38,805 nucleotides of DNA, from UHGV virus genome UHGV-0123934, one strand, 5' to 3'. Below are positions 9,113 through 38,805 of this stretch, piece by piece; the first letter of the stretch is position 1; every line of letters starts with the position of its first letter. This stretch comes from a virus. The notes beneath the pieces were generated by a model. That model was not told the origin of the DNA. It was given only the letters and a program-made list of their open reading frames with translations, and made no database searches. A program made the translations under genes and the position numbers.

Positions 9113-9143
9113 TGCGGACAATTTGTGAGAGCTTAAATGATAT

Positions 9144-12815: not shown

Positions 12816-12819
12816 TATT

Positions 12820-13440
12820 ATGCCATATACTGGAGGACCATTGAATACATTAAATGGGAAAATGGGTATTTCTGCTCCGGAGAATAGTGTACCTGTTATG
12901 AAATTAATTCGCATACATCATCCTAAAAGTAAAGAGGAATTAGTCGAATTAATAAAATGGCATTCTGAAAACAAGTGTGAATGCGGTATTATTAGTAGAG
13001 GAACGGTTGAACAATTTGGGAAAAATTTATATGAAGCTCAAAAAGCATTTTGGGGAGAATATAAATTTTCATTAGCAATATGCATCCAATGGGAATATGA
13101 TTTATTTGTTTTACAATCATTAAAAGGTTCTTTGGTTGAAGATGCTGCTATTAGGACTTTAGAGACCCAATTAGAGCCTGAATATGCTTTTTTAGAAGCA
13201 ACCGGTTATATGGATGAAGAATTGCGAATTGATATTATTTGCAAATATAACAATAGCATTATTGCCGGCATTCAGGTCAAACCTTTAACATTTTTAATGA
13301 TGAGACGAGAAATTATTACTTATAATGCTATGGCTAATCAAAAATGGGATAAACCTGTATATTATTTATATTATGACGAAAATGAAAATTTCGTAAATAT
13401 TGAAGAAGTAAAGTCTCATTTAAAATCATCGATTCTTTAA
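12820..13440 (+). CDS. hypothetical protein, R-M island (possible second REase subunit or specificity factor)
   Basis: ATG at 12820, 5 nt after the upstream stop; AT-rich; stop overlaps the MTase stop (convergent). Confidence 0.35.
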   Translation: MPYTGGPLNTLNGKMGISAPENSVPVMKLIRIHHPKSKEELVELIKWHSENKCECGIISRGTVEQFGKNLYEAQKAFWGEYKFSLAICIQWEYDLFVLQSLKGSLVEDAAIRTLETQLEPEYAFLEATGYMDEELRIDIICKYNNSIIAGIQVKPLTFLMMRREIITYNAMANQKWDKPVYYLYYDENENFVNIEEVKSHLKSSIL

Positions 13441-17249: not shown

Positions 17250-17602
17250 TGGATTTCAAGAAACATCTGATCGCGCTTTTGGAGCGTGAGATTCCAGAAT
17301 TGGCGGATAAGATTCAAGCCGGTGCGGTCGATGCCCGGACGCCTGCGCCTTTCGCCGCGTTCTCCGTACCGGAAGAGACGCCCGTAAGGACGCTACACGG
17401 CATCGTCGGCTATCGGACGATGTTCGAGGTAGCGGTCTATGACAGCAGGTTCTCCGGTGCGGAACGCCTCAAGCATCGGGTGATCGCCGCCTTGGAGGGT
17501 GCGGAGTTCGACGGCAAGCGCAGCCGCTTCGTCTCCTCGGCGGCGGAATACTATGCAGACTACGACGTGCACGGTGCGACGATGACATTCAGAATTGTTT
17601 AA
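17246..17602 (+). CDS. putative tail completion/terminator protein
   Basis: 118-aa ORF overlapping upstream stop (ATGA), last gene of the head-tail joining block; no motif. Confidence 0.4.
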   Translation: MMDFKKHLIALLEREIPELADKIQAGAVDARTPAPFAAFSVPEETPVRTLHGIVGYRTMFEVAVYDSRFSGAERLKHRVIAALEGAEFDGKRSRFVSSAAEYYADYDVHGATMTFRIV

Positions 17603-18242
17603 CCCAATCCGTAAAATCGAGTTTTATGAGTTGCCAGATTTTATTTTCAAGACAAACAGGGTCGGGATCACCATCCGCTCTCGTAAAATCGGTCAATCCC
17701 GCAAGGCATTCTTCGCGCGATGCTCCGTAGGGATATCGTGCTGCGTATAAAGCGAGCAGCTGCTCGATAGAATAGGCATTATGAAGAAGATGCAAATCCC
17801 AAAAGTCCTTTTTACGGCCGCCGCGGGCGATAACATCCATCTTCATCGCAACGATGTCGTCTACGGACGCCATACGGATCGTATCGTGCTGCTCTGCCGG
17901 GCGGATGAAGTCATCCGTATAGAACAGGTCGAGTTTTACGGACTTTTCCCGGTTCTGTCCGATGATATATGAGGCCCCGAAGCCGACGATTTCTCCGCAA
18001 TCACCCTGACAATAAGGAAACTCTTTGCGCAGAATATCCTGCAATTTATGGAAATCCAAAGATCTATACTCGGCATCGGTAAATAGATCTATATCGTCGG
18101 ACATACGATGTCCATAGCGCAAACTGAGCGAGGTGCCGCCGACAAGGCGGAACGGGGCGAATGCTTCGAGAGTCATCAGATGTTCGAGTGACGACCGCAG
18201 AATGGGTTTGACAGTATGGTATTGCAACGCTTTATGCTTCAT
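17589..18242 (-). CDS. nucleotidyltransferase, AbiEii/AbiGii toxin-like (DUF1814-like)
   Basis: N-terminal FRLVGGTSLSLRYGHRMSDDIDLF (GGT...S.DIDL polymerase-beta-like NTase signature); start overlaps upstream partner. Confidence 0.75.
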   Translation of the reverse strand: MKHKALQYHTVKPILRSSLEHLMTLEAFAPFRLVGGTSLSLRYGHRMSDDIDLFTDAEYRSLDFHKLQDILRKEFPYCQGDCGEIVGFGASYIIGQNREKSVKLDLFYTDDFIRPAEQHDTIRMASVDDIVAMKMDVIARGGRKKDFWDLHLLHNAYSIEQLLALYAARYPYGASREECLAGLTDFTRADGDPDPVCLENKIWQLIKLDFTDWVKQF

Positions 18243-18753
18243 AATCGAGATATTGCTTCAGGTTCTTTTTGATAACCGATGAGAATGGAGATGACGGCGA
18301 TAATCCGATCTTGCTTAAAATGGTTTCTCGACCATAAAAACGGATGGTTTCGATGATCTCTTCTTCATTGCCTCGCTCCATTACGCGATTGATAACGTAA
18401 CTGCTATGGGCATCCCAATTGATATTGTCGAACGATGTGTCCCAAAACAGGGAAGGTCGGTATTTTTCGAGATCCGGATGGTGAGCGGACGAAAGTTTTC
18501 GCTTCTCCTGCACAATGTCGTAGTGAACCTGCAGGGTCATGAGTATGCCTTCCTCTAATGCGAGCGCATGTTCGATTCGCAACGACAGCGGAATATTCAT
18601 CGACCTGCGGCCGCGAATAATGGCGCTTATGGTTTGGGGGTGCTCACCGATAGATTTAGCGAACCGACCGCTTTTCAGGTTTCGATTATTCAGCTCGCGT
18701 TGTAAGAAGAGTCCCGGATGTACTCCTTTCAGTATGTCGATTAAATTGTTCAT
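18232..18753 (-). CDS. HigA-like HTH antitoxin/regulator with C-terminal extension
   Basis: VHPGLFLQREL ... ISAIIRGRRSMNIPLSLRIEHALALEEGILMTLQVHYDI resembles the HigA/VapI antidote HTH; 11-nt overlap with the NTase gene; ATG at 18753 (track start 18762 is TTG). Confidence 0.6.
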   Translation of the reverse strand: MNNLIDILKGVHPGLFLQRELNNRNLKSGRFAKSIGEHPQTISAIIRGRRSMNIPLSLRIEHALALEEGILMTLQVHYDIVQEKRKLSSAHHPDLEKYRPSLFWDTSFDNINWDAHSSYVINRVMERGNEEEIIETIRFYGRETILSKIGLSPSSPFSSVIKKNLKQYLDYEA

Positions 18754-18817
18754 ACAACGCAAAAGTAAACATATTTGTTTATTTTAACAAATTTTATGCC
18801 GAAATATTTTTACGCTT

Positions 18818-24975: not shown

Positions 24976-25094
24976 ACCGACGCACGGATGCTCCTCGTTC
25001 AAGCTGCGGGGAGCATCCGTCCTAACCCCGGAGCAGGGTTGCACACGTCTCTTTCGATAGGAAATCTATCGTGCTCCATCAGTTGTTTATTGCA

Positions 25095-25133
25095 GCCGGA
25101 GCCGCATTATGTGCGGCTCCGGTATTTTATTTT
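25095..25133 (+). terminator. intrinsic terminator preceded by inverted leader motif cagttgtttattgca (25080-25094)
   Basis: Perfect 11-bp stem ccggagccgca/tgcggctccgg, 5-nt loop, then attttatttt. Confidence 0.7.
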
Positions 25134-25175
25134 GTATGTAAATAATGATTAAATTTGTAACGAAAACAGAATACG

Positions 25176-26216
25176 ATGAAAGCCTATACCTATATCGAAC
25201 ACGGGCGGTTCGAGCTGCTCGACAAGCCGGAACCCGCCTTGCAGGACCCTCGCGACGCCATCGTGCGCGTGACGCTCGCGAGCATTTGTACCAGCGACCT
25301 GCATATCAAGCACGGCAGCGTACCCCGCGCCATTGAGGGCATCACCGTCGGCCACGAGATGGTCGGCATCGTCGAGGAGGTCGGGTCGGAGGTGCGCAGC
25401 GTAAAGGTCGGCGACCGCGTGACGGTCAACGTCGAGACCTTCTGCGGCGAATGCTTCTTCTGCAAGCGCGGCTACGTGAACAACTGCACCGATCCCGACG
25501 GAGGCTGGGCACTTGGCTGCCGCATCGACGGCGGGCAGGCGGAGTATGTCCGCGTGCCGCATGCCGATCAAGGGTTGAACCGCATTCCCGATACGGTGAG
25601 CGACGAGCAGGCATTGTTCGTGGGCGATATTCTGGCTACAGGTTATTGGGCGGCGAAGATTTCGGAGATTGCGCCCGACGACACGGTCCTGATTATCGGT
25701 GCCGGACCGACGGGTATCTGCACGCTGCTTTGCGCAAGATTGAAGCGCCCGAAGCGAATCATCGTCTGCGAAAAATCGCCCGAACGGCGGCGATTCGTGC
25801 GGGAACACTATCCCGAGGTGCTGACGGTCGCACCGGAGGAGTGTCGCGAGGCGGTTTATGCGAACAGCGACCGTGGTGGCGCCGACGTCGTGCTGGAGGT
25901 GGCCGGTGCGGAGGATACGTTTCGCCTGGCGTGGGAGTGCGCCCGCTCCAATGCGACGGTTGTTATTGTTGCGCTCTACGACCGGCCGCAGATGTTGCCG
26001 CTGCCCGACATGTACGGCAAGAACCTCACCTTCAAGACGGGCGGCGTAGATGGCTGCGACTGCGCCGAGATACTCCGGCTGATCGAGGCGGGCGAGATTG
26101 ACACCACGCCGCTCATCACGCACTGTTATCCGCTCGGCCGCATCGCCGAGGCATACGACCTCTTCGAAAACCGCCGCGACGGAGCGATCAAGGTGGCTAT
26201 CGATTGTACCGAATAG
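25176..26216 (+). CDS. zinc-dependent alcohol dehydrogenase family protein (MDR superfamily)
   Basis: Catalytic-zinc signature GHEMVGIVEEVG, structural-zinc Cys cluster CGECFFCKRGYVNNC, Rossmann motif LIIGAGPTG. Confidence 0.85.
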   Translation: MKAYTYIEHGRFELLDKPEPALQDPRDAIVRVTLASICTSDLHIKHGSVPRAIEGITVGHEMVGIVEEVGSEVRSVKVGDRVTVNVETFCGECFFCKRGYVNNCTDPDGGWALGCRIDGGQAEYVRVPHADQGLNRIPDTVSDEQALFVGDILATGYWAAKISEIAPDDTVLIIGAGPTGICTLLCARLKRPKRIIVCEKSPERRRFVREHYPEVLTVAPEECREAVYANSDRGGADVVLEVAGAEDTFRLAWECARSNATVVIVALYDRPQMLPLPDMYGKNLTFKTGGVDGCDCAEILRLIEAGEIDTTPLITHCYPLGRIAEAYDLFENRRDGAIKVAIDCTE

Positions 26217-26241
26217 AGGTATGTATCCGCGCGATAATATT

Positions 26242-26943
26242 TCACGTCAGCGTCCACCCCTTGTCTGTTGCGATCGCTTTTTGGATAGCATTCAGTTTCG
26301 CGAGGTTCTTCGCTCCGATATTGCAGGTCTTGCCATTGCCGGTATCGGATAGCGCGTTCAACAGGAATACCAAACTCTCTACCATGAGTTTCGGACAGCC
26401 GTTCACGGCGATGTCTACATTGACGGGGCCGTCGATGATTACCGTTTCGAGTGCGGAGCAGGAGACGAACGTCGTGTCGATCTTCGATGTTACCTTGCTG
26501 AAGTCAAGTCTTCCGCCGATTTTACGCAGGCTCTTGCAGCCGTGGAACATCTCCGAAGCGGAAGTAATGCGCGAGGTGTCCAGTCCGCCGATCTCCTGCA
26601 AGTTCGTACAACCGTAGAAAGCATACATCATATTCGCGACGTTCGAGGTGTCGAGCGTCGGCACACGCTCCAGCGCCGTACAGCCGTAGCACATCTGATA
26701 CATCGAATCGAACGACGCTGTGTCGAGTGCCGGAAATACCGACATCGTCGTATTGCCCCGAAAGAGCTGGTAGCCGTTGCGGATCTGATTCATTCCGCTG
26801 GTGCTGTCCACCAATGCGACTTTATCGACGAGCGATACCAACGTCTCTTCGTCGGTTATCGCCACGCCTTTGTCGCGTAGCGCCCCGGCAAGGTGCTGCC
26901 GCAGCGCATCGAGCCGCAAAACGAGTGAAGTAAAGTCTGCCAT
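26242..26943 (-). CDS. BspA-type leucine-rich repeat protein (putative tail-associated adhesin/receptor-binding component)
   Basis: Tandem repeats of the F.GC..L..I...DTS....M..F.GC type (MCYGCTALERVPTLDTSNVANMMYAFYGCTNLQEIGGLDTSRITSASEMFHGCKSLRKIG). Confidence 0.65.
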   Translation of the reverse strand: MADFTSLVLRLDALRQHLAGALRDKGVAITDEETLVSLVDKVALVDSTSGMNQIRNGYQLFRGNTTMSVFPALDTASFDSMYQMCYGCTALERVPTLDTSNVANMMYAFYGCTNLQEIGGLDTSRITSASEMFHGCKSLRKIGGRLDFSKVTSKIDTTFVSCSALETVIIDGPVNVDIAVNGCPKLMVESLVFLLNALSDTGNGKTCNIGAKNLAKLNAIQKAIATDKGWTLT

Positions 26944-26946
26944 ACG

Positions 26947-27180
26947 CTATCCGATAATATGGTTCAGTGCCTCCTCGATGCCCGTCAGTCCGAGCGAAGC
27001 GGTCATCGCATCGACCAACGTCGCATAAGTTACGGCAGCACCCGTACCGTTGCGGTCGATTTCGATAAGGTCGGTGGCTGCCAAAGTCGTCACCTTCGGG
27101 AGTTGAGAGAGCGTGATCGTATCGGTATCCGATCCGGTTGCAAGCCGTCCTATAATCGCCCCTGTTTGTTCTGTTGCCAT
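26947..27180 (-). CDS. hypothetical small protein (tail fibre module)
   Basis: 77-aa ORF tightly packed between the tail fibre and LRR genes. Confidence 0.4.
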   Translation of the reverse strand: MATEQTGAIIGRLATGSDTDTITLSQLPKVTTLAATDLIEIDRNGTGAAVTYATLVDAMTASLGLTGIEEALNHIIG

Positions 27181-27184
27181 AATT

Positions 27185-29323
27185 CTATTCTTCGTAAATC
27201 TTGAATTCGGACATCATCTGATAAGTTACGTGCCACATGCATTTGGCGGAGGAATAGGGCGACGGCACAGCCAACAGTTGCAGTAGTCCTCCGTAGGTCT
27301 CGATGCGAGGAACCGGCAGATAGCCCATTCCGTAGGCATCTTTCTTCAGTGTCGTCACGATGCCCGACTGCGTGTCGTCCGCCGCAAGTACCAGACTGGG
27401 CGACGAACGGGTGCGGATCGGACAGTCGTAGAGGTTCACCACGCTGCCGATATATTCGGCCGATGTCGGCAGGTTAAGCCAAATGAGGTAAGTGCCGAAA
27501 TCCGCGCCGTTGGCGATCAGGTTGAAGTTGCGGTTCAATGTATACTTGCGGGTCGAGGCGTTGTAGTCCGTGCCTTCGTCCGTGAAGTATTTGAACTGCA
27601 CCTTCGAATATCCGCTGAAGATACCGCTCGCCATTTCGACATGTCCGTCTTCGTAGATGCGTGTGGCAGCCGTCGCAGCATTCTCGATACCGTCCGCGCC
27701 GGCGAAGAACATCAACTTGCCGTGCTTCGACGTCGGAGCGCCTTTCAATGCGCAGCCAGCCATACCCGCTACGACCTTCTTGTCCGTATCATCCTTTACG
27801 CCGACGAACCCTGACAGCACCACACCGCTTCCGGCATCGATCTCCGTCGAGATATCCTGAAAGTTCTCGCGCAGATACTCCAGATCGCTGTTGTCGCTTT
27901 TCGCCGCTTCGTCCAAGAGCGCTCCGATCGTCCGGCGGGCCGTGTAGTAAGCCTCGATGTCGGCGAAATCATCCTCGACCGGAATGAACTCCGGTTCCGG
28001 CTGCGTATATTTCCCGATGGCGGCGACGGCCCGCTGATAGGCATCTTCGTAGGGTGTCCACTCATCGGCGAGCAACCGAACGGCGCGCCGCTTGCCGTGC
28101 ACCATAAGTATTTTCCCGTTCGCGCTGCGATAACGAAACACAGAGAGCAGCCGCAGGGCATTGGCGCGGAGTTGTTCGTATTCGGTTCGGATATCCTGCA
28201 AGCGCTCTTTCAGGAACGACTTCTCCACAGGAGAGACGTACTCATCGGAGTTGATACGACCGAGCGTCTCCAACGTCGAGGAGATCGTCTGCATCAACTC
28301 GTCGAAATCCGTTCCGGCATCGGGCTTCGCGGGATCGATGCGACCGAAGCGTAAGATCCCGTTGCGGAAACTTACGCCATAACCCGTCGTACGGTTGAAG
28401 AGCTGCATATCGCCCGTCGCGGAGTCGAACCACGAGTCGCCCGACCTGTCCGAGAGGAAGCCCGAGAGGTAGATGTTTTTCAAATAGGCCGAATAACCGG
28501 TCATATCCAGACCGTGCGCCTTGAGATTCGAAAGGTCGCCGAACTGCGCTGCGATATTCTCCGTGCGGATCGTCCAGTCGTCCATACCCGTGAGAAACCG
28601 CAGGTAGGTGCGGGTTTCGTAGCGGGAGGTCCGGCGCTCCTTGTCGGTCGTATTGCCGAATGCCACGAACTGCATCGCCGCCTGCGGGTGATAGGGATAA
28701 CCCTCGCGCAATTCGTACCGCCATTCGGCGTAGGTATCGCGGTCGAGGCACTCGGTAAGCCGGAAGTAGCAGGTTGTGAAGCCGGCATAGGTGCGGTTGC
28801 CGAACGAGTCGTCCGAATCGACGGTATTGCCGCTCGATGCGTCCATTGCCGAGTTCAGAAAGATGCCGATACAGAGATCGTTCTCGCGTAGGGTGCTTGT
28901 TTCGCCCTCCTCCAACTTGACGACCAGCATCCGGTTCTCCGGCGAGACGAGCTCGACGATGCCGCCGCCCGGAGCGGACCACCGATCGCCGACGACCGTT
29001 TCGATGCGGTTGTAGCGATATTCGGGGACCTCCAGGAACTCCTCCAAATGAAGCCGCCGCAGGTACGTATCGCCCATAACCGATAAGTCGCCCGAGATCG
29101 TACCGCCTTTCTTGTCCAACTTCTTGTCGAGTTCGCCCGACAGTCCCGTGATGTCGGAGACGGCGTGCGTATGCTTCTTCGGAGCCATTACGCTTTTGAT
29201 CTCCTTACCGGAAACCTTCATCGATGCGGCGGCTGTCGGGACGTCGACGATGAACTCGAATGCGTCGAACTCCGCCAATTGTCCCGAAGCGCTCGCGAGG
29301 TCTTTGATGCGAACTTCGTCCAT
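27185..29323 (-). CDS. phage tail fibre / receptor-binding protein
   Basis: ATG at 29323 (ORF track extends to 29503); N-terminal KKHTHAVSDITGLSGELDKKLDKKGGTISGDLSV-type fibre segment. Confidence 0.55.
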   Translation of the reverse strand: MDEVRIKDLASASGQLAEFDAFEFIVDVPTAAASMKVSGKEIKSVMAPKKHTHAVSDITGLSGELDKKLDKKGGTISGDLSVMGDTYLRRLHLEEFLEVPEYRYNRIETVVGDRWSAPGGGIVELVSPENRMLVVKLEEGETSTLRENDLCIGIFLNSAMDASSGNTVDSDDSFGNRTYAGFTTCYFRLTECLDRDTYAEWRYELREGYPYHPQAAMQFVAFGNTTDKERRTSRYETRTYLRFLTGMDDWTIRTENIAAQFGDLSNLKAHGLDMTGYSAYLKNIYLSGFLSDRSGDSWFDSATGDMQLFNRTTGYGVSFRNGILRFGRIDPAKPDAGTDFDELMQTISSTLETLGRINSDEYVSPVEKSFLKERLQDIRTEYEQLRANALRLLSVFRYRSANGKILMVHGKRRAVRLLADEWTPYEDAYQRAVAAIGKYTQPEPEFIPVEDDFADIEAYYTARRTIGALLDEAAKSDNSDLEYLRENFQDISTEIDAGSGVVLSGFVGVKDDTDKKVVAGMAGCALKGAPTSKHGKLMFFAGADGIENAATAATRIYEDGHVEMASGIFSGYSKVQFKYFTDEGTDYNASTRKYTLNRNFNLIANGADFGTYLIWLNLPTSAEYIGSVVNLYDCPIRTRSSPSLVLAADDTQSGIVTTLKKDAYGMGYLPVPRIETYGGLLQLLAVPSPYSSAKCMWHVTYQMMSEFKIYEE

Positions 29324-29671
29324 AACGACGTGAAAATAACGCTTCGCCGAACCTTTTTCGGGATACAAAGTCCCTAATTCCGAAGAATGCCTTATCTTTG
29401 TAATTGCATTCCGCTCTGTCGGGATGCGACATATTATTCGACTTAACCTCGGAAAAAACTGGTAATTTTTTAGCAAATGGTTAAGCACTCCGTATCCTCG
29501 CATCGAACGGCTCCTGCCGTAAGGTTCGGGATATGGTCATATCCCTGCTTTACGGCGTGGGCTATACGTGCTTATCATTTGCAGGTATACCAGTACCTTT
29601 CCGAGATAGGCGGCAGTAGGCCCACGTTCTTTTTTGTCCGGCGGACAGACGCGATCCTATCTGCCATTTCG

Positions 29672-30181
29672 ATGATTATGAAAGCAACGAATCGAATACC
29701 GGATCGCCGTGTCGTGCGACCGTTGACCGCACGGATATTGCGGTCGTTTCTGGTGGCGTCGGAACGCTCGCATCACCATATTTATGCGCTGTGGGAACAC
29801 GCATCGATCCTGTCATTTGCGATAAAGAATGCAGACGGCGAATATTTGTCTTTGCGAGAGTTTTTCAGCAAGGGCGATGCGGTTGCGCCCGACGATCCGC
29901 TCATCGTCATCTTCCACGAAATGCATATCGAAACCGTGGAAGAATTGACCGCTGAATATATCGAACGCATTTATGAATCGTTTCTCTACCATCATTGCGA
30001 GATGGAATTGCGCCGCAACGCCCCGCTCCGTTTGACTCCGGAATCGATACGACGATACGGCTTGACCGAGGCGGATGCTGTCCTTGTCGGCGAGCATCTC
30101 GAAGTCCTGAACGAGATGATCCGTCGGAAACTCCAGCGGCAATACGACGAACTCAAAGCCTTGGATTGCATTCGGAAGTAG
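29672..30181 (+). CDS. hypothetical protein
   Basis: ATG 29672 inside ORF 29477..30181; GC-rich, divergent from the tail fibre gene, upstream of the SIR2-NTPase gene. Confidence 0.4.
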   Translation: MIMKATNRIPDRRVVRPLTARILRSFLVASERSHHHIYALWEHASILSFAIKNADGEYLSLREFFSKGDAVAPDDPLIVIFHEMHIETVEELTAEYIERIYESFLYHHCEMELRRNAPLRLTPESIRRYGLTEADAVLVGEHLEVLNEMIRRKLQRQYDELKALDCIRK

Positions 30182-30255
30182 TATTTTAAGTACTATCATA
30201 AGTTTTATGGAGTAGATTCTCATTCTTTTTTGCTGGAAATTGCGAAATAAAGAAG

Positions 30256-30279
30256 ATTTTGCTATTTTTATAGCAAAAT
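30256..30279 (+). promoter_or_regulatory. perfect 10-bp inverted repeat attttgctat-tttt-atagcaaaat, operator-like, 8 nt upstream of the SIR2-NTPase start
   Basis: Read directly from the sequence. Confidence 0.5.
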
Positions 30280-30287
30280 AATATAAT

Positions 30288-32780
30288 ATGGACGCTAAGA
30301 TTGAAAAACTTAAATTCAGCCTGCGACACAATAATCCTAATTTATTTGTTGGTGCAGGGTTTTCGTTAGGTGCTACTCTGCAAAATAATGCACCGATTCC
30401 AAGTGGAGCGACATTAAAAGATGGCATTATTACAAATATCCTTAAATACCCGAAATCCAGCCCGGAATATAATGAACTTTCCATATTACCATTGTGTAAA
30501 GTTTGTACTATTACAGTCGCAGAAAAAGGTCGTGAAGAACTTTATTCTTATTTACAGTCCATATATCAAAATGTGCAACCAGCCGAATTCCATAAATCAT
30601 ATATTAAATATCCTTGGCATAACATATATTCGACCAATATCGATGATGTAATTGAAAATGCTTGTGCAATTGAGAATGTGCCTATTATTATATATAATGA
30701 GCCACATAACCCTAAACCAAAACAAGATAAAAGTCTTGTATTATATAAATTGCATGGCTGTGTTAATAACATGGACGCAGGCGTTATTTTTGATGAGGAA
30801 GAATATATCGATTCTATTTTAGATAGAACTGACCATAGATTTGGTAATTTATCTATTGAATTTCAAACAAAAGATTTTGTTTTCGTTGGATCTGATTTTG
30901 ATGATTTTAACATTAATTATTATTTAAGTTTATACTCAGCAAATGGTACAGATTCAGGCCGAGGAAATTTGTTTTTTATTAATCCAAAGCCATCATATGC
31001 TTTTAAGAGTAGGATAAAGCAGGTTGGAGGAATTTTGATAGAATTCAATGCGAAGCAATTTGCAGAATTGATTGATTCCATAAGATTTGATTTAGAGACA
31101 ATAAACGAAACCAAACTGTCGTATGATGGTTATGTGCGTGTCAAACAATTAAAAGACAATTTGTCGTCAAATCATTACGATTCGGATTTATATCTTGGAG
31201 CGCGTCCGAAATGGACAGATATTTTTTACGATTGGGATATTATTTTATCGCCCGCAATTAAGACATTCATTTCTACATTGGATGATTTTGAAATCGATGA
31301 TAAGAATACTTTGGTTTATGCTATACACGGGCGAGGATATTCCGGGAAGTCTGTACTAATAAAAAGACTTGCTAACATTCTCATTGATGCAAATTATGAA
31401 ATCATTTCATTTGAAGGAAAAAATTTCAACTCCAATAGATTCTTACATTATATAAATAAATCACAATATCACAAGTTTGCATTAATTGTTGATGATGCCA
31501 GTTATTTATATAGCCAGTTTGAATATTTGTGCAAGAAAGTATCTGGAAAAATTAAACTGTGTATTATATCGGCTTCAAGAATATTTCTTCATAACAAGCG
31601 AAAATATAGTCTTGTAAATATAAATAGCGTAGAATACGAGATGACAATAACTATAGATGAAGCTATTGCATCTGATATTATTAACAAATTAAACCAAAGA
31701 GGCTATTTAGGACGTATTCTTCGTTCCTGCCCAGATAAAGATTCTCAAATTCAATTCGCAAAAAATAATACGGATATAGCATCTGCTATTTTTGCTATTA
31801 CATATGGGAAAGATTTCCAACGCCGTTTTGCTGCAGATGTCAATAATATTATCAAAGATGGCAATTATAGAGATCCGCTAATCAAATTGGCAATTTTTCA
31901 GAAAATGCAATTAGCATATTGCCCTCGAGAGTTATTCGTTAGATTATATGGAAAGCGAATTATAGGGATATTGCAACGTATGGAGAATATTTTAAGAGAT
32001 GCGCATTCTCCACGCCTTGAGCTAAAAAATGATTTTATTGGAGATATTATCCTTAAAAATTCAACATCTGTAGAAATAATAAATAGTTTGAAAGAGCTAT
32101 TGGTATATATTTCATCAATGGTTGAAAACACCTCCAATTCTTACTGGAATGAGATTCAGTCTATATTAATGAGAGATAAGTTAGTTCGTGATGTCTTAAA
32201 TATAAAACCTTCTGATTTTAAGCAAATGCTATATGAAATAAGAGAATATTATTATGACAATTACAACTATTGGCTTCAATTAGGAATTGCGGAGCAATTG
32301 GCAGGAGATTATGATAAGGCGTTAATTCATTTTAGCCAAGCACAAATATACGGCCCCAAATCCTATATGGTAAAAAACGCAATTGGTCGCAATTATATAT
32401 TTCAGGCAATTAAAGAATTGGATAATGATATTGCTATAAAATTATTTAATGAAGGGAAATGTATTTTATTTGAATTAATTAAAAATAGAGAAGAATATCA
32501 AGCGAAAGCATATTCAACGCATACATATATTGCTGGATTGATAAGGTTTTATAAACGAAAGCACAATTTGAAAATTTCCTCAAAAGAAGCTAAAGAAGCA
32601 CAGTCTCTTATCAATACAATACGCATAAAATATAAAGGAGATCCAATATTTGAAAATTTAAACTCGACTTTCACTAAATTTATTTTACAACATTCTTCGA
32701 ATATGACATTAAATTTACAAGAGTTACAAATGTCATATAGAAATTGTGTAGATGAAGTGGAATTCATAGATATGGATTAG
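30288..32780 (+). CDS. SIR2-like domain protein fused to P-loop NTPase and helical repeat domain (SIR2-STAND / Avs5-like candidate antiphage protein)
   Basis: SIR2-family motifs LFVGAGFSLGA, IYSTNIDDVIE, LYKLHGCV, FVFVGSDFDDF; Walker A IHGRGYSGKS and Walker B FALIVDDA; C-terminal about 450 aa helical/TPR-like; strongly AT-rich. Confidence 0.75.
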   Translation: MDAKIEKLKFSLRHNNPNLFVGAGFSLGATLQNNAPIPSGATLKDGIITNILKYPKSSPEYNELSILPLCKVCTITVAEKGREELYSYLQSIYQNVQPAEFHKSYIKYPWHNIYSTNIDDVIENACAIENVPIIIYNEPHNPKPKQDKSLVLYKLHGCVNNMDAGVIFDEEEYIDSILDRTDHRFGNLSIEFQTKDFVFVGSDFDDFNINYYLSLYSANGTDSGRGNLFFINPKPSYAFKSRIKQVGGILIEFNAKQFAELIDSIRFDLETINETKLSYDGYVRVKQLKDNLSSNHYDSDLYLGARPKWTDIFYDWDIILSPAIKTFISTLDDFEIDDKNTLVYAIHGRGYSGKSVLIKRLANILIDANYEIISFEGKNFNSNRFLHYINKSQYHKFALIVDDASYLYSQFEYLCKKVSGKIKLCIISASRIFLHNKRKYSLVNINSVEYEMTITIDEAIASDIINKLNQRGYLGRILRSCPDKDSQIQFAKNNTDIASAIFAITYGKDFQRRFAADVNNIIKDGNYRDPLIKLAIFQKMQLAYCPRELFVRLYGKRIIGILQRMENILRDAHSPRLELKNDFIGDIILKNSTSVEIINSLKELLVYISSMVENTSNSYWNEIQSILMRDKLVRDVLNIKPSDFKQMLYEIREYYYDNYNYWLQLGIAEQLAGDYDKALIHFSQAQIYGPKSYMVKNAIGRNYIFQAIKELDNDIAIKLFNEGKCILFELIKNREEYQAKAYSTHTYIAGLIRFYKRKHNLKISSKEAKEAQSLINTIRIKYKGDPIFENLNSTFTKFILQHSSNMTLNLQELQMSYRNCVDEVEFIDMD

Positions 32781-35137
32781 AACCCACCCAACACCTCCGA
32801 CTTGAAGTTCTCTTTTCCGAGAACATACACCAAATCCCGACCCTTGGCAGTCAATTGACCGCCGAGGGTTATTCGTAGGTTCTGCGTGCTGCCGCTCATC
32901 GGAAGCATCGCCTGCAACTTCGACAGCGGCGCGATGACTTCGGGATCCGTACCGGCATTGGGATTGTCGCCGACCATCGCATAGGTAGGACCGTATGCCA
33001 GACCGCCGTTGGCCAATGCCGGCACGCTCTTTTCCGCATTCTTGTTGATGAGCGCCGTCATCACGGCTGCCGCCGCGACCATCGCAGCACCGATGGCGAT
33101 CGCCGCCCATGGGTTCGCGAGGACGGATTTCAACGCCGACTTGAAGGCGATGATCATCACGCCGAACTCGATGAGTTGCGAGCCGATATTTTTCAGAAAA
33201 GAGGCGAACTGCGTCAGGATCGCTTTCATCAGCCCTCCGAATCCCAAATCGCCGGCAATGATCTGCCCGATAGCCTCCGCCGCTGCGACGATGCTGTCGG
33301 CCATAAACTTCGACACCTGCTGATCGAAGCGCGTCATCACCTCCGCAATCGTGGCGTGGACATGCTCCAATGCCGCCGAGAACGACCAGCCTTTCGCCGT
33401 CAGTGCCGTCGTGTAGTTCTCGACGGTCGAGACCGTATCGGCGACGTGCTCCTGCAAGTATGCGCTGTTGTCGTCCGCCCAGCCGTATAACCCTTCGCGT
33501 ACCGCACCGAATATCGCCTGCATCTGCTGCGCGTATTGCGATGTTACGGGTTTCAGATCGCCCATTTTGAGTTTCGGCGCCGGCAGTTCCAACTCGAAGC
33601 CCTCGGGCAGAATGCCGTTCATCTTGACGACGGGTTTCAGGTCTTCGGGCTTGATATTCTTGATCCGCTCCAACTCTTTTTGCAGCTTCTCGATCTCGGC
33701 GTTCGCCGCAGCGATATCTTCGACAGTCGATTCGGGCAGTAGTTTCTTCTTTTCGAGGGCCTCGATCCGCGCCTGCAATTTACCGATGATGCCCGTGCTT
33801 TGTTCCGTCTGCGCGTTGGTTCCGGCGATGGACTTCATCAGCTCCTCGGTCTGCTTGCGAGCCTCGTCCGTTACCTTGTCCAGTTCGGCCTGCGCCTCGG
33901 CCGCCTTCTTCTCCGTTTCGCGTTTCTTTTCGATGGCTGCCGTCAGCAGGTCGTACTCCTTGCGCAAGGGTGCGAGTTTCGATTCGTCGGGTACTTTCTG
34001 CAAGGTAAAACCGGCGACCAATCCCCCGAAATTCGGAACCATCCGCGTCTTGGTCGTCGTGGCGATGATCTCTTTCTGCTCGGCGATATTTTCCTGCAAC
34101 TTGCGTTCGAGCTCGTCGAGCGATTCGGTCTCTGCCATCTCGTCGATCATCTTCTGCTTTTGGATGCGGGCATAGGCAAACGCCGCACCGAGCGCGAGGA
34201 TCGCCGCCATAATCAACCCGACAGGCGAGAGCAATGCCGTAAATCCTGCCGCCAGCATCGGCAGCACCTTGATCACGGCGCCGATTCCGAGCGAAAGGGG
34301 ACCGACCGCTGCGACCAGCCCCGCCACGACGACGATCGTCTGCATCATCGCCGGCGACATCGATTGCAACATCTGCACGACCGTCGAGAGCGCACCCGCC
34401 ACTTTCATCGCGAAAGGCATGATGGCCGCACCGATCTGTTCCAAGAAGTCGCCCCATGCGTTCTTGAGCTGCTGCACGGCTCCGAGTCCCGTTCGTGCGG
34501 CGGCTTCGGCCTGCCCGCCGAACTTGCGCTCCAACTCGTCGAGGATCATCGCCTGCGCTCTGGCTATGTCGCCCGTCTCGGCGAGTTTCTTGATCACCTC
34601 CGCCTGCTCCTTGGAGAAGGCTATGCCGGCACGCGACAGCGACGAGAGCTTCGTCGCGGGATCGGAGAGCGCCTTGCCCAACTGCAACGACGCCGCACCC
34701 AAATCCATCTCCAACGCCGTGGCGAGGTCCAATGCCAACGCCTGCGTGCGCTTGAAGTTCTCGCCTGTGATATTGGTAAAAGCCAACAGGCGGGCGGTGG
34801 ATTTGTCGAGAATCGTCTCGTCGCCGAAAAGCGTTTTGCTCTGCAACTCCGAAGCGTAGTCGGCCAGCTGCCGGAAGTTGTAACCGACAGCCCGATTCGT
34901 AACCTTGAGCGCCTGCTGCACCTTCGCCTCGGCTTTGGCCTGCACGTCGGCCAAGTGCAGCGACACGCCGCCCAATGCCGCAAGGGGCGCGGTGAGCTTC
35001 AGCGAGAGCGACTTGCCGACGGAGGTCAACTTCTTTTCGAGCGAGCCGAGACCTTTCTCGACCTGCTGCGCCTTCTGCTGGAACTCATACGAGTCGGCTC
35101 CGATCTTGATAAGCAGATCGGCGATTCTTCGGGACAT
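32777..35137 (-). CDS. phage tail tape measure protein (TP901-family-like)
   Basis: 786-aa protein with coiled-coil segments, central hydrophobic helices (IVVVAGLVAAVGPLSLGIGAV, GLIMAAILALGAAFAYA) and a TP901-type N-terminal core. Confidence 0.85.
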   Translation of the reverse strand: MSRRIADLLIKIGADSYEFQQKAQQVEKGLGSLEKKLTSVGKSLSLKLTAPLAALGGVSLHLADVQAKAEAKVQQALKVTNRAVGYNFRQLADYASELQSKTLFGDETILDKSTARLLAFTNITGENFKRTQALALDLATALEMDLGAASLQLGKALSDPATKLSSLSRAGIAFSKEQAEVIKKLAETGDIARAQAMILDELERKFGGQAEAAARTGLGAVQQLKNAWGDFLEQIGAAIMPFAMKVAGALSTVVQMLQSMSPAMMQTIVVVAGLVAAVGPLSLGIGAVIKVLPMLAAGFTALLSPVGLIMAAILALGAAFAYARIQKQKMIDEMAETESLDELERKLQENIAEQKEIIATTTKTRMVPNFGGLVAGFTLQKVPDESKLAPLRKEYDLLTAAIEKKRETEKKAAEAQAELDKVTDEARKQTEELMKSIAGTNAQTEQSTGIIGKLQARIEALEKKKLLPESTVEDIAAANAEIEKLQKELERIKNIKPEDLKPVVKMNGILPEGFELELPAPKLKMGDLKPVTSQYAQQMQAIFGAVREGLYGWADDNSAYLQEHVADTVSTVENYTTALTAKGWSFSAALEHVHATIAEVMTRFDQQVSKFMADSIVAAAEAIGQIIAGDLGFGGLMKAILTQFASFLKNIGSQLIEFGVMIIAFKSALKSVLANPWAAIAIGAAMVAAAAVMTALINKNAEKSVPALANGGLAYGPTYAMVGDNPNAGTDPEVIAPLSKLQAMLPMSGSTQNLRITLGGQLTAKGRDLVYVLGKENFKSEVLGGF

Positions 35138-35143
35138 AGCGGT

Positions 35144-35551
35144 TTAGGGTTTGTGTTGCAGATAGAGCATCCAGCCGGCCTCGACATCCGATAGTACCGC
35201 CGACCGCCCGTTTTCCACACGCGATATAGCCGCCACGATGGGGATCATCGTTTCGCCCTCCTGCGTATCTACCGGCTCGTCGGCGCCGATGCCCGACCAC
35301 TCGGCCACGCAACGGATATAGTTCTCGGTATGGTTCTCGACGGGCGGAGCGTAGCGCGAGATCATCTGCCGGATTGTCCGGTAACCCTTGCGGGAGTAGG
35401 AGTCCAGCAGCACGAACATCGCGCGGTAGCCCCACGCCATCGTCTCGAATTGCTTGAATGCCGTATCGCGCGAGGGCGCAACTTCGCCCAGATACTTCGT
35501 CGCCGACCGGCGGATATTGCCGGGATTACGATTGCTCAGTCCTCTGCTCAT
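35144..35551 (-). CDS. hypothetical protein (NPGNIR motif; possible lysis or virion protein)
   Basis: ATG at 35551 (upstream part of ORF 35144..35755 is low-complexity S/R-rich and overlaps the neighbouring gene). Confidence 0.4.
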   Translation of the reverse strand: MSRGLSNRNPGNIRRSATKYLGEVAPSRDTAFKQFETMAWGYRAMFVLLDSYSRKGYRTIRQMISRYAPPVENHTENYIRCVAEWSGIGADEPVDTQEGETMIPIVAAISRVENGRSAVLSDVEAGWMLYLQHKP

Positions 35552-35555
35552 TGCT

Positions 35556-35930
35556 TTATGATTTTCGGTTATTCTCGTCGTTCTCTTTGCGCTTGCGCTC
35601 CAACTCGGCTCTTTTGAGCAAGACCGGGCAATGTTCGGGCGGCGTTTCGCACTTGTAGGCCTGTCGGATGACGATGCGGCTGCGATCGATTTCCACGTCC
35701 TTGTGCTCGATGATGATTTCGAGTTTGCCGACCTTCTCTTCGAGTTTCTCCACACGCCCGTCCAGCCGCGTGATCTGCTCGGACTGGATCGCTACGACTT
35801 TCTCCGTGTTCGCTAATTCGGCGGAGTCGGCGGCCGCGTTCTCCTTGCGTTTCTTCGCGTTGAAAAAGAGAATCGTTCCCGCCAGACCGCTGGCGAGAAT
35901 GAAGTTCAGAATGATGGATAGTGTTTCCAT
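35556..35930 (-). CDS. membrane-anchored coiled-coil protein (holin/spanin-like candidate)
   Basis: N-terminal hydrophobic helix LSIILNFILASGLAGTILFF followed by a charged coiled coil. Confidence 0.45.
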   Translation of the reverse strand: METLSIILNFILASGLAGTILFFNAKKRKENAAADSAELANTEKVVAIQSEQITRLDGRVEKLEEKVGKLEIIIEHKDVEIDRSRIVIRQAYKCETPPEHCPVLLKRAELERKRKENDENNRKS

Positions 35931-35940
35931 AGTATTGCAC

Positions 35941-38805
35941 TTATTCAGGAATGAATTTGTAAATCGCCCGTTCGCGCACGATATAGAGGTCGCCGTAGAT
36001 GAAGAATAATCCCATGATGTTCTCGCCCCAGCCGGCGACGTTCCGGACGTCGGTCGTCGTGTCGTCGCGGAAGTTCCGGATGAAGATACCGTCGTCGTAG
36101 GAGTGCACGACCTCGCTCATCGTATGGTCGGCATGATCCGCCCAGCGTCCCAACCGCCGGAGCAGCGTCCGCTCGGTAATTGAATCCCGCCGGTAGAACC
36201 ACAGCATATCGTCGGCGTTGATGCCGATATAGTTGTCGGAGATGGTGACGATCTGCTCGCCCGCAGCGAATTGCAGCATCTTGCAGGGCTGGTGGAACCG
36301 TTTGTCGTGCAAATAGGCGCCCTGCGAGGTATTCACGACGATCGTATTTTCCGTGCGCCGCAGGGCGAGGATCGCACCCGACATCGGCGTACCCTCGTAG
36401 GCATATCCCCGTCCGCGATAGCCGGTCGAGGCGTCGGGCGAAACGTACTTGCACTCCGGGCGCGAGAGGTAACGATAGGTACGATAGTTCGGATCCTCGT
36501 CCTCTGCCGTGCGGGCGCTGCGTCCGCCGGCATTGCCGCCCCGCGGACCGATATACTGCCGGTAAGATTTCAGGATATGGATATACCCGTCCATGTAGGT
36601 CGCGACGTTGCGGTACTCCTCCGGCGGGACGTATATCCGTTCGACCGTGCCGCGATAGTCGAGGTAGCGGACCTCTTTCCCGTCCACCGCAACGAACCCC
36701 TCGTCCGCTTCGTACATCTCGAAGGACGTCGTGCTGCGATAGATCTCCCGCACCTGCCGCGTAGCGGTATCGAAGGCATAGACCGTCTTTTTATCGGCGG
36801 ACTGGAGCAGCAGTCGGTTCAGGCAGCGGATCGCCTTGCCGACCGTGAAGGAGAGCGTCGCGACCGCTATGCAGTCGTCGCCCTTCGGCGGCTTCTCCGT
36901 CGCGAGCAGATGCGGCATCTCCGTGAGTTCGCTGTTATAGGAGTCGTCGAGGGCATTCAGTTCGATGGAGTTCAGATAATAAGCGGCGTTCAGGAACTTG
37001 TCGTCCCGAACCACCGTATTCATATCGATATGCTGCCCCGTGAAGATCTCGCCCGTGATACGGCGGCTCGGCAGCTGCTTGTACCGCAATGCTCCCTGTA
37101 CGATATGGCCGACGAGCGTGTCGTAGTCGTTCCGATCTTTCGTATGCCAGATGCGCGTGGGATTGCCGGCGGCATCGAGGTAGTAGAGCGCATAGAGCAG
37201 CCGGTCGTTCGGAATGGCGGGAATATCGCTCACGGGCAACGTTACGGACATATCGACGTTGTTCGCGGGATCGACGAGCGACTCGTAGCGCAAACCCTTG
37301 TCGTAGCTGTCGCCCGCATCGATCGAGAGCGTCATCTTGCGGAATGCGGCGCTCTCCTGATAGCCCGAGGTGCGGCCGCTCGGGTTGCCGAAGCGGTCGG
37401 TATAGGTCGTGATCTTGCCTATGAGCGTCTGCCGGATGAAGAACCGCCACTCGCCGTCGCAGGGGATGCCGTCGATCTCGATCTTCATATTCTGCTCGTT
37501 GCCGGTCTTGACCGTACTCGCGATCTCCCCGTCGGAGGACTGCACCCACGAGCCGCTCTCGGTGAGGCTGTATGTCGCCTTCTCGCCGACGATGCGGACG
37601 CCGTAATGCACCGCGACATCGACGCTCTCGTTCGGGCGGTAAACGCCCAATCCCCATTCCCGATGGAAGGTCTGCAACCCGAACTCCCATACGAGCGGGA
37701 AGTTGCACTGCTCGACGGAGAAGCCCCGAGTTACGACCTCCGCACCCCGATAGGCATCTTCGCCGCTGAAATAGAGTTCCTCCCCGCTCTTCACGGAGAC
37801 GAAGCCGTGCGGATCCGTCCAAGCGTCGGGATCGTAGAACCCGATGCGGGCGATCAGGTTGTCGAGGCTCTTGTTCTTTACATCGACCGAGACCTTGCGC
37901 AGCGCAGGGACGATGTCGAGCGTCGAACTTCCCTCGATGTGCAGGTCGCCCGTCCACATACCGTCGATGCGCTCGCGGGCCGCCGACGTGACGACCTGCG
38001 CACCGGTATGGATCACGAGCCGCAGTCCGCTGCCCGTAACGATCCTCCCGACGGGATGCTCCGTGCCGACGCGGTAGAAATTCACGGGACGGGCAGTTCG
38101 GTAGAGCGACACGGCGCGGCGGATATGCAGGGCGCCGTTCGACTGGAAGATCTGTCCGGCGAACGGACGCAGACACAGTTCGAGGATGTCGCGATAGGTA
38201 GGCTCCTCGTAGACGTAATAGAGCCGTTCGAGGTCGATATAGGTTTGACGGAGCGGAGAGGCGTTCTCGTCCATACCCTCGGCATACAGGTCCATCCAGT
38301 CCGCCGTATCGAGATCCAACTCCAACAGGTCGATGCAGGAGGAGAGCAGTTCCCACAGCGACCGTCTGCCCGCGATACCGATATGTACGAGGTCGCGGAA
38401 CGGAATGCTCGACAAGAGGTTGAAGCCGTCCACGGCCTTGATCGTGACGGTATAAGGCGGAGCCGTGAAGTTCTCGGAGTAGAGATCGGAGGTGACGTAG
38501 CCCCGCCAGTAGAGCTGCCGATTGCGGAAGATCGAGACACGAAAATAACGGGGATCGGAGGTGAACAGAGCCAGGTAATGGAAATTCTCCTTGCAGAGGA
38601 TGTTGATGGTCGCCTCCGAAGCCTTGACCGGCACGTAGAACTCGTCGCCCCGTTTCTCCCACGTGATCTGCAACGGCGTACCGCCGTCGAAGGCCATCTC
38701 CTCCGACGGACCTGCGTACCCCCGCTCCGAAATCTCCACGCGCCACAAGACGCCCTTGTACTTAGAGCGAAGTTCAGCGTAATATTTCAGACCAAAAATC
38801 GCCAC
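35941..38805 (-). CDS. large phage structural protein (over 950 aa), N-terminus may lie beyond the window edge
   Basis: Long ORF with diverse, aromatic-rich composition, unlike the Arg/Gly/Pro-rich alternative frame; upstream of the tape measure in the same orientation. Confidence 0.5.
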   Translation of the reverse strand: MAIFGLKYYAELRSKYKGVLWRVEISERGYAGPSEEMAFDGGTPLQITWEKRGDEFYVPVKASEATINILCKENFHYLALFTSDPRYFRVSIFRNRQLYWRGYVTSDLYSENFTAPPYTVTIKAVDGFNLLSSIPFRDLVHIGIAGRRSLWELLSSCIDLLELDLDTADWMDLYAEGMDENASPLRQTYIDLERLYYVYEEPTYRDILELCLRPFAGQIFQSNGALHIRRAVSLYRTARPVNFYRVGTEHPVGRIVTGSGLRLVIHTGAQVVTSAARERIDGMWTGDLHIEGSSTLDIVPALRKVSVDVKNKSLDNLIARIGFYDPDAWTDPHGFVSVKSGEELYFSGEDAYRGAEVVTRGFSVEQCNFPLVWEFGLQTFHREWGLGVYRPNESVDVAVHYGVRIVGEKATYSLTESGSWVQSSDGEIASTVKTGNEQNMKIEIDGIPCDGEWRFFIRQTLIGKITTYTDRFGNPSGRTSGYQESAAFRKMTLSIDAGDSYDKGLRYESLVDPANNVDMSVTLPVSDIPAIPNDRLLYALYYLDAAGNPTRIWHTKDRNDYDTLVGHIVQGALRYKQLPSRRITGEIFTGQHIDMNTVVRDDKFLNAAYYLNSIELNALDDSYNSELTEMPHLLATEKPPKGDDCIAVATLSFTVGKAIRCLNRLLLQSADKKTVYAFDTATRQVREIYRSTTSFEMYEADEGFVAVDGKEVRYLDYRGTVERIYVPPEEYRNVATYMDGYIHILKSYRQYIGPRGGNAGGRSARTAEDEDPNYRTYRYLSRPECKYVSPDASTGYRGRGYAYEGTPMSGAILALRRTENTIVVNTSQGAYLHDKRFHQPCKMLQFAAGEQIVTISDNYIGINADDMLWFYRRDSITERTLLRRLGRWADHADHTMSEVVHSYDDGIFIRNFRDDTTTDVRNVAGWGENIMGLFFIYGDLYIVRERAIYKFIPE

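Follow-up and report, generated by a model that had tools for sequence, protein, structure and literature searches.

A putative Avs5-type SIR2-STAND gene in a defence hotspot between tail genes of an Alistipes prophage

The Avs5 proteins of clades 1 and 2, EcAvs5 and PaAvs5 among them, share a Sir2-STAND-repeat architecture, and their output is the hydrolysis of nicotinamide adenine dinucleotide (NAD+) (PMC12931631; see also Gao et al. 2020). The Avs5 protein of Escherichia fergusonii (EfAvs5, clade 3) is triggered by T7 gp1.7, forms filaments on activation and depletes NAD+; its NADase is inhibited by ATP (PMC11897194). ATPase activity is essential in PaAvs5 (PMC12931631), and the characterised Avs5 homologs defend against heterologous phages (PMC11897194, PMC12931631). 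The published Avs5 tree has four clades, which share just 18-21% identity with one another (PMC12931631), and the family has been reported mainly from Pseudomonadota (PMC11897194). In this work, we analysed the UHGV virus genome UHGV-0123934, a stretch of 38,805 nucleotides (nt) hereafter called the window. Based on its open reading frame (ORF) list and on domain searches, it carries an Avs5-like SIR2-STAND gene of 830 amino acids with an ATG start, which extends from 30288 to 32780 on the plus strand, stop codon included. An initial annotation of this DNA had pointed to an 830-residue ORF between tail genes, to six SIR2 and Walker motifs within it and to a SIR2-effector plus STAND-NTPase layout of the Avs5 type. 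The ORF and all six motifs were found, and the Avs5-type layout was supported by the Pfam domains and by profile alignment with EfAvs5. The position 30256, which had been given as the start of the feature, is the first base of an upstream inverted repeat; the gene itself starts at 30288.

Domain architecture and relation to Avs5

The N-terminal part of the window protein, approximately residues 1-280 (30288-31127, plus strand), is a predicted SIR2 NADase effector domain, recognised by the Pfam SIR2_2 model (PF13289) at residues 113-236 (E 1.6e-14; 54.7 bits for a cutoff of 24.5) and by matches to the SIR2 domain of ThsA. It contains the motifs LFVGAGFSLGA (residues 19-29), STNIDD (115-120), YKLHGC (153-158) and FVFVGSDFDD (197-206), and it holds the GAGFS NAD-binding loop (G22, A23, G24, F25 and S26), the catalytic residues N117 and D119, and H156. 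The STAND NTPase (NOD) region follows and, together with helical and winged-helix parts that extend to about residue 560, occupies positions 31191-31967 of the plus strand, the end being approximate. The Pfam nSTAND_NTPase5 model aligns with residues 302-432, and the Walker A motif GRGYSGKS (residues 348-355, with K354) and the Walker B motif LIVDDA (residues 399-404, with D402/D403) are both present. The remaining C-terminal portion (31968-32777, plus strand) is a helical, TPR-like putative sensor domain, delimited from the profile alignment and from weak Pfam TPR_2/TPR_1 matches at residues 661-690 (E 0.007-0.017, below cutoff). The family profile matches consensus TPR proteins at E ~5e-6, and residues 661-690 form a YWLQLG...ALxHFxQA motif that is conserved in the family, with W662, Q664 and G666 invariant or nearly so; the motif is also recognisable in EfAvs5, as FWVQ, and in the PDB entry 9NAH. 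A single-sequence AlphaFold2 model of low confidence (predicted local distance difference test score, pLDDT, 34; predicted template modelling score, pTM, 0.23) gives an all-helical secondary structure for the C-terminal domain.

Our database search identified 52 relatives, nearly all of 810-870 amino acids and with the same SIR2_2 plus nSTAND5 architecture, the nearest of which are 58-67% identical to the window protein. In the family alignment of 48 homologs, with identity down to 19%, residues G22, G24, F25, W110, N117, D119, E123, H156 and G157 are invariant, and G348, G353 and K354 are nearly invariant. The profile of these 48 homologs aligned with EfAvs5, whose structure was solved by cryo-EM (9JAP), in one stretch by hmmsearch (E 1.9e-47; profile positions 3-697, chain residues 40-751), spanning the SIR2 domain, the NOD and most of the C-terminal domain, and hhalign gave a probability of 99.7% over 672 columns (E 1.2e-26, 15% identity). 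The deposited 9JAP chain of 869 residues includes a 20-residue tag, for which the EfAvs5 numbering used here was corrected; native EfAvs5 has ~849 residues. In this alignment, N117, K354 and D402 correspond to EfAvs5 N141, K379 and D426, each of which is needed for defence (PMC11897194). The EfAvs5 residues reported to form its NAD+ pocket, A41, T140, N141, Y142, N180 and Y202 (PMC11897194), are paired with A23, T116, N117, I118, H156 and Y173, respectively. The predicted NAD+ pocket is therefore intact in the GAGFS loop, T116-N117, H156 and Y173, and the window family keeps the canonical His at the position where EfAvs5 has N180. The spacing of the motifs is also similar, with 237 residues from the catalytic Asn to the Walker A Lys compared with 238 in EfAvs5, and 48 residues from the Walker A Lys to the Walker B Asp compared with 47. 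Thus, both proteins are built of the same three parts in identical order and have a similar length (830 and ~849 residues), and both are single-gene systems. EfAvs5 comes from Escherichia fergusonii, whereas the window gene is borne by a prophage of a Bacteroidota gut anaerobe.

The profile also matched 9NAH, a 'SIR2 family protein' of 769 amino acids, at E 1.2e-24 in three segments that correspond to the SIR2 domain, the NTPase and the YWLQ motif. We take 9NAH as possibly belonging with the PaAvs5/EcAvs5 group; no publication was found for it. The compact size that the initial annotation attributed to the window protein was not borne out, since 830 residues are typical beside EfAvs5 (~849 native), 9NAH (769) and the PADLOC Avs5 model (771 positions). 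Regarding the NTPase, PaAvs5 has been annotated as nSTAND3 (PMC12931631), and nSTAND5 is the best model for the window protein. The EfAvs5 NOD is matched almost equally by nSTAND3 (32.9 bits) and nSTAND5 (32.8 bits), and therefore the groups cannot be told apart by the NTPase model that fits best. No anti-jumbo-phage role can be deduced for the window protein from the comparison with PaAvs5.

Several observations weigh against an assignment to Avs5. The 15% profile identity to EfAvs5 is below the 18-21% found between recognised clades, pairwise BLASTP to EfAvs5 covers the N-terminus only (23% identity, E 4e-4), and the last ~130 residues of the window protein do not align with EfAvs5. The sole three-dimensional model, the AlphaFold2 prediction described above, is unusable at pLDDT 34. 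Pfam and PADLOC searches had been proposed in the initial annotation as checks. In the former, SIR2_2 was above cutoff and nSTAND_NTPase5 (E 4.2e-8) reached 33.6 bits, just 0.4 bits short of the Pfam cutoff of 34; other family members reach 86-91 bits on this model. In the latter, the Avs5 model (PDLC02170, 771 positions) gave no match to the window protein up to E 1, and it matched 5 of the 48 family members (best E 2.2e-11). As a control, the same model gave no match to EfAvs5 residues 40-751; since it misses EfAvs5, its negative result weighs little, and we dropped it as an uninformative membership test. This model covers part of the recognised family. Finally, a hypervariable C-terminal sensor, as might be expected, was not found. 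Identity is uniform over the domains, with 59% in the C-terminal domain and 58% in SIR2 among close relatives, and 35% and 38%, respectively, at middle distance. Within the family the C-terminal domain is thus as conserved as SIR2, unlike the fast-evolving sensors described for PaAvs5, in whose homologs the repeat domain is poorly conserved (PMC12931631).

Taking both sides together, the window protein is predicted to be a divergent member of the known Avs5 family, not a new kind of system, and by alignment it is placed at or just past the recognised edge of Avs5 diversity. There are hints that its clade was not sampled in the published Avs5 set; the available part of the supplement texts of PMC12931631 contains none of the terms Clostridium, Bacteroid-, Alistipes, Lachnospir- or WP_027098001. 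Our literature searches on nSTAND5, 9NAH/9NC9 and an Alistipes prophage hotspot returned nothing relevant.

Other SIR2-containing systems were also compared. PADLOC and a single-sequence PDB search of the window protein matched the SIR2 domain alone, as ThsA-like. ThsA of the Thoeris system (6LHX, 8BTO) was the closest single-sequence SIR2 match (6LHX, E 1.4e-9; PADLOC ThsA models, E ~1e-15) and has the same catalytic Asn and His. These matches are limited to approximately residues 73-240, beyond which the window protein has its STAND NTPase followed by repeats of helical type, with no match to a SLOG domain. No TIR match was found in the ORFs adjoining the SIR2-STAND gene, and no ThsB/TIR gene is adjacent to it in the window. 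An identity as Thoeris ThsA was ruled out, the likeness being confined to SIR2 and no partner gene being present. The PADLOC models for DSR2, SIR2-HerA and SIR2-APAZ-pAgo gave no match to the window protein, and the Dsr2 or Aga_SIR2 models match just 1-2 of the 48 family members; readings as DSR2, SIR2-HerA or pAgo-SIR2 were discarded, with similarity restricted to SIR2 and no conserved HerA or pAgo partner. The Avs5 literature describes the eukaryotic proteins SAMD9/SAMD9L and the FAM118 sirtuins as structurally related to Avs5 or to SIR2 proteins with antiphage activity (PMC12931631, PMC12700824). No sequence-level match to these eukaryotic proteins was seen here.

Relatives in genomes were found in Bacteroidota metagenome-assembled genomes (34-38% identity), in Lachnospiraceae and other Clostridia (24-32%, mostly ~30%), and also in Treponema and Acidobacteria. 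We compared the gene neighbours at 26 loci, i.e., 21 genomes, 4 viral contigs and the window prophage, and no neighbour family was common to more than 2 of them. Because no neighbouring gene is conserved over the 26 loci, the SIR2-STAND gene is best described as a single-gene system. Its AT content exceeds that of the flanking DNA at almost all loci, a common trait of defence genes that are mobile. Four full-length relatives are located on IMG/VR contigs (L049-L052). Those of L050 (9983-12517) and L051 (9938-12472), with 34% identity, are lone antisense genes among small unannotated genes, inserted a few kb from terminase- or portal-like ORFs, amid packaging and replication genes. The relative in L049 adjoins integrase, lysin and tail genes, and the context of that in L052 looks chromosomal. 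The locations in L050 and L051 suggest that the family has been repeatedly captured as phage cargo. A tblastn search of the window protein against 50,697 deposited phage records gave no relative, and megablast of positions 25000-38805 of the window against deposited phages gave no match.

The tail-gene slot and its interchangeable cargo

The identical 830-residue protein is listed in 222 collection blocks, and the cluster records give 107 contigs; the four contexts shown, which represent 24 contigs, are all the same prophage. Because the exact protein recurs in 222 blocks and 107 contigs, the gene appears to be maintained and not decaying. The window encodes a large terminase. The prophage ends, beside the host rsmD gene, with genes for an ORF6N protein and for a tyrosine integrase of the Bacteroidota type. 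The flanking RsmD protein has the same sequence as that of Alistipes onderdonkii, and public records list the integrase under Alistipes; the host is Alistipes, with an A. onderdonkii flank.

The SIR2-STAND gene is antisense to the tail genes on either side, in agreement with the initial annotation. To its right, the 786-residue tape measure protein gene (32777-35137, minus strand) was identified by PHROG 27166 (E 2.5e-54) and by tblastn, whose matches fall under annotated tape measure genes of deposited phages. To its left is a tail-fibre-like structural gene of 712 residues (27185-29323, minus strand), with weak PHROG and 'phage tail repeat' matches, which is kept in all related phages. Its start at ~29323 was deduced from a homology breakpoint at 29325 and from a gene call in the related contig L002; a flanking ORF of 772 residues, as had been annotated, is thus over-extended. 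The location between tail fibre and tape measure genes that had been proposed stands for the tape measure gene; the 'tail fibre' label is plausible from weak matches and position, and the interval also contains an accessory ORF, orf169. The contrast in composition that had been noted is clear, with a GC content of 0.308 and a third-codon-position GC (GC3) of 0.24 in the SIR2-STAND gene, compared with 0.593 and 0.79 in the tape measure gene and a GC content of 0.576 in the fibre-like gene. The convergent stop overlap was also found, as the sequence TTAG at 32777-32780, where the TAG of the SIR2-STAND gene (32778-32780) meets the TAA of the tape measure gene (32777-32779, minus strand), so that the two ORFs share 4 nt.

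Searching IMG/VR with the tape measure protein, we retrieved 17 loci of 67-97% identity, 15 of which span the tape measure-to-fibre interval. The gene order p954, p124, p135, tape measure, variable interval, fibre, p77 and DUF285 is kept in all 15, and none of these related contigs carries the SIR2-STAND gene. The variable interval has a length of 0.45-2.1 kb and a GC content of 0.30-0.45. Twelve alternative contents occupy it, eight of which match known defence families: AbiJ (L032, L042), a PLD-family nuclease similar to NgoFVII/DrmC (L034, L035), a Lit-like peptidase (L036), PDC-S11 (DUF4268; L039), a bSEFIR/TIR protein (L041), AbiLi with a DUF3226 protein (L047), a putAbiC/AbiP-like membrane protein (L038) and an AbiGi-like protein (L043). 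The other four are unannotated, none having a convincing Pfam, PADLOC or PDB match. They consist of a 214-residue protein (L033, 12368-13012, minus strand) with only a weak PtuB match (E 0.003), a protein of ~115 residues present in two phages (L037, 6319-6669, and L045, 7844-8188, both minus strand), a 427-residue protein (L046, 6097-7380, minus strand) with no convincing Pfam, PADLOC or PDB match, and, as the only ORF in its slot, an 81-residue hydrophobic ORF (L044, 6018-6263, plus strand) with no convincing match. PDB searches with the L046 and L037 cargo proteins gave no match. These four cargos are candidates for undescribed defence or accessory functions. As in the window, the cargo is antisense to the tail genes in 11 of the 12 alternatives. 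Based on these observations, the slot between the tape measure and fibre-like genes is a defence hotspot for interchangeable cargo, and the known defence genes found in the same slot of related phages strengthen the idea, already put forward in the initial annotation, of a phage-carried defence.

The limits of the window cargo were obtained from the points where homology to the backbone breaks. This homology ends at 32782-32784 in most relatives (range 32762-32787) and resumes at 30176-30189 in phages with orf169 or at ~29325 (range 29323-29378) in phages without it. Given these breaks, the island proper is 30190-32781, a variable AT-rich cassette (GC 0.306) that is absent from the 15 informative related contigs. 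On the tape measure side, the break falls after the codons ...V-L-G-G, and therefore the cassette provides the stop codon of the tape measure gene. Of 14 relatives compared, 10 have a tape measure protein that ends with ...VLGG; that of the window ends with ...VLGGF, the cassette supplying the last tape measure codon (F) and the stop. In this manner, 1-7 C-terminal residues are added in the window, L043, L044, L045 and L047.

Rousset et al. are said to have described, in 2022, defence hotspots in prophages and satellites such as P2 and P4. The window slot shares with them a fixed location between conserved phage genes, diverse and interchangeable AT-rich defence cargo and, presumably, the expression of this cargo in the lysogen. 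It differs from them in its Alistipes lineage, in the tape measure/fibre location, in the break within the last tape measure codons, by which the cassette comes to supply the stop, and in the antisense orientation to the tail operon shown by the window cargo and by 11 of the 12 alternatives.

To our knowledge, Avs5 has been studied solely in Pseudomonadota, namely in E. coli, E. fergusonii and P. aeruginosa. The Avs5 papers PMC11897194 and PMC12931631 make no mention of prophages or of Bacteroidota/Firmicutes. With the locus described here, the range of Avs5 would come to include a Bacteroidota genus that is abundant in the human gut, together with relatives in Firmicutes, and the family would be placed aboard temperate phages. 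Because the PADLOC models leave both the window protein and EfAvs5 without an Avs5 label, defence censuses of the gut microbiome probably undercount Avs5. The hotspot provides a compact and well-delimited candidate set, with four members lacking annotation, for guilt-by-association discovery in Bacteroidales, and prophage-borne defence in Alistipes bears on gut phage-host dynamics and on the design of phage therapy. Neither the Avs5-like gene nor the hotspot overturns current understanding; what they add is the hotspot with its unannotated cargos, the extension to gut Bacteroidota, the PADLOC blind spot and three further defence islands in the same prophage.

Proposed function and alternative explanations

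We consider it probable that the SIR2-STAND gene encodes a single-protein antiviral STAND of the Avs5 type, which a temperate phage of Alistipes carries as cargo expressed in the lysogen. By analogy with its characterised homologs, we infer that the window protein would deplete NAD+ and confer phage resistance. The gene would have been gained as one of many interchangeable AT-rich cassettes at the tape measure/fibre-like recombination hotspot. Following what has been described for EfAvs5 and PaAvs5, the protein would be present in the lysogen as an inactive monomer until infection by a different phage, when its C-terminal domain would bind a phage protein. The NOD would then drive dimerisation and higher-order assembly, which in EfAvs5 takes the form of filaments, bringing the SIR2 domains into an active dimer. 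The active SIR2 domain would hydrolyse NAD+, and phage replication would stall; this loss of NAD+ would protect the lysogen population and, hence, the prophage.

A different output or activation mode, in a distinct SIR2-nSTAND family that has its layout and ancestry in common with Avs5, is unlikely, although several features fit it. For example, the SIR2 domain of such a family could act by ADP-ribosylation of a target or by synthesis of a signalling nucleotide, or assembly could lead to a closed oligomer instead of filaments. The 15% identity to EfAvs5 and the unusually conserved C-terminal domain are consistent with such a separation, as is a distribution over Bacteroidota, Lachnospiraceae/Clostridia, Treponema and Acidobacteria, compared with the mainly Pseudomonadota range of Avs5. 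Two further differences carry less weight: nSTAND5 is the best model here and nSTAND3 is that reported for PaAvs5, but EfAvs5 is near-equal on both; likewise, H156 is kept where EfAvs5 has Asn180, but His is normal at this position in NAD+-hydrolysing bacterial SIR2 proteins such as ThsA. Moreover, the pocket residues required for NAD+ hydrolysis are conserved, and the sequence gives no sign of another chemistry.

The two remaining explanations concern the relation of the gene to its phage. It is very unlikely that the gene serves the prophage life cycle, either as an addiction or stabilisation toxin or by sensing late proteins of its own phage, in order to adjust the time of lysis or to kill cells in which the prophage is lost or induced. 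Such a role would suit a gene inside the late tail operon that is convergent and overlapping with the tape measure gene, and the nearly always antisense orientation of the slot cargo could couple its expression inversely to late transcription. Nevertheless, the close relatives without the gene hold unrelated defence genes in the slot, which places it outside the phage core programme; additionally, members of the family are found on chromosomes and elsewhere without neighbours in common, and the characterised homologs act against heterologous phages. That the gene is an inactive passenger, i.e., a horizontally acquired remnant without current function, is extremely unlikely. Its foreign composition (GC 0.31 vs 0.59) would agree with this, as would the upstream region, where no exact match to the Bacteroidetes -7 motif TAnnTTTG was found, while some other cargos have one. 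However, low GC is typical of the family at its loci, the ORF runs uninterrupted over 830 codons and retains every catalytic motif, the protein is identical on at least 107 contigs, and conservation over the 48 homologs agrees with active sites kept under purifying selection.

Beyond the antiviral role that we favour, we tentatively raise a combined and rather doubtful proposal, in which the slot is dedicated to defence cassettes with a functional layout and the SIR2-STAND group may represent a fifth Avs5 clade. Since the antisense cargo abuts or completes the tape measure stop, late tail transcription on induction would collide with the defence gene and silence it, and silencing at this moment would keep NAD+ depletion from harming the replication of the phage itself. 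Given such specificity of the slot, the four cargos without annotation, and possibly orf169 as well, would represent new proteins of defence or counter-defence. A fifth clade, in Bacteroidota/Firmicutes, would be characterised by the canonical His and by the unusually conserved C-terminal domain, the latter of which could mean that a conserved trigger is sensed.

Upstream region, neighbouring genes and other defence islands of the prophage

The intergenic region upstream of the SIR2-STAND gene (30182-30287, plus strand; GC 0.23) is presumed to contain a promoter or operator site. It holds the inverted repeat ATTTTGCTAT-tttt-ATAGCAAAAT at 30256-30279, with arms of 10 nt each (30256-30265 and 30270-30279), which ends 8 nt before the ATG. 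What had been annotated as a perfect 10-bp palindrome is in fact this repeat, interrupted by a 4-nt spacer. A second, equally good 10-nt inverted repeat is located within the SIR2-STAND coding sequence (32701/32729), and for this reason the upstream repeat is not clearly beyond chance in AT-rich DNA and its significance is not demonstrable.

Between the SIR2-STAND and fibre-like genes, and on the same strand as the former, is orf169 (29672-30181, plus strand), an accessory ORF of 169 residues and GC 0.52 that was delimited from gene calls in L001-L004. It has no Pfam, PHROG, PADLOC or PDB match. It was found with other cargo in L032, L036, L037, L042 and L046 and is absent from the remaining relatives; its occurrence beside five other cargos and its absence elsewhere rule it out as an obligate partner. 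These same five relatives carry, further along, an alcohol dehydrogenase gene. In the window, this zinc-dependent alcohol dehydrogenase gene (25176-26216, plus strand) is antisense to the tail genes and matches PHROG 2640 (E 6e-72) and Pfam ADH_N and ADH_zinc_N; it is metabolic cargo, present in some relatives and absent from others.

Counting the Avs5-like gene, the prophage contains at least four islands of defence type. One of them, AT-rich and directly downstream of the terminase gene (8435-10250, plus strand; GC 0.34-0.42), includes an unannotated ORF of 225 residues (8435-9112, plus strand) followed by a gene for a helix-turn-helix (HTH) plus M78-peptidase protein (9144-10250, plus strand) that matches PADLOC RmrA models at E 6e-58; from these matches, it looks like a Rosmer-type (RmrT/RmrA) defence pair. 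A second AT-rich island (12237-14582, GC 0.30-0.43) encodes a type II restriction-modification system. Its endonuclease (12237-12815, E 4e-65) is MjaI-like and overlaps a further ORF (12799-13440) with weak similarity to MjaI. The methyltransferase, of the N6/N4 DNA type, is encoded convergently (13437-14582, minus strand; PADLOC MTase_II, E 3e-149). In a lower-GC patch, an AbiEii-like nucleotidyltransferase toxin (17589-18242, minus strand) is preceded upstream by an HTH/DUF6922 protein (18232-18762, minus strand), and the two (17589-18762) are likely an AbiE/type IV toxin-antitoxin defence pair.

A DUF285/BspA-type leucine-rich-repeat protein (26242-26943, minus strand), encoded immediately downstream of the fibre-like gene and kept in all relatives, may be a receptor-binding or adhesin component. 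The segment 22000-25000 of the window has lower GC (0.44-0.51) and short ORFs only; in its L001 counterpart, one of the called genes encodes a DUF4314 protein and several others encode small proteins without annotation. A 203-residue ORF upstream of the tape measure gene (35144-35755, minus strand), which may encode a tail-associated lysin, matches endolysin/transglycosylase-type PHROGs (phrog_873, E 2e-40). At this site, the gene callers of L001 report only a 135-residue product, which overlaps the 124-residue ORF.

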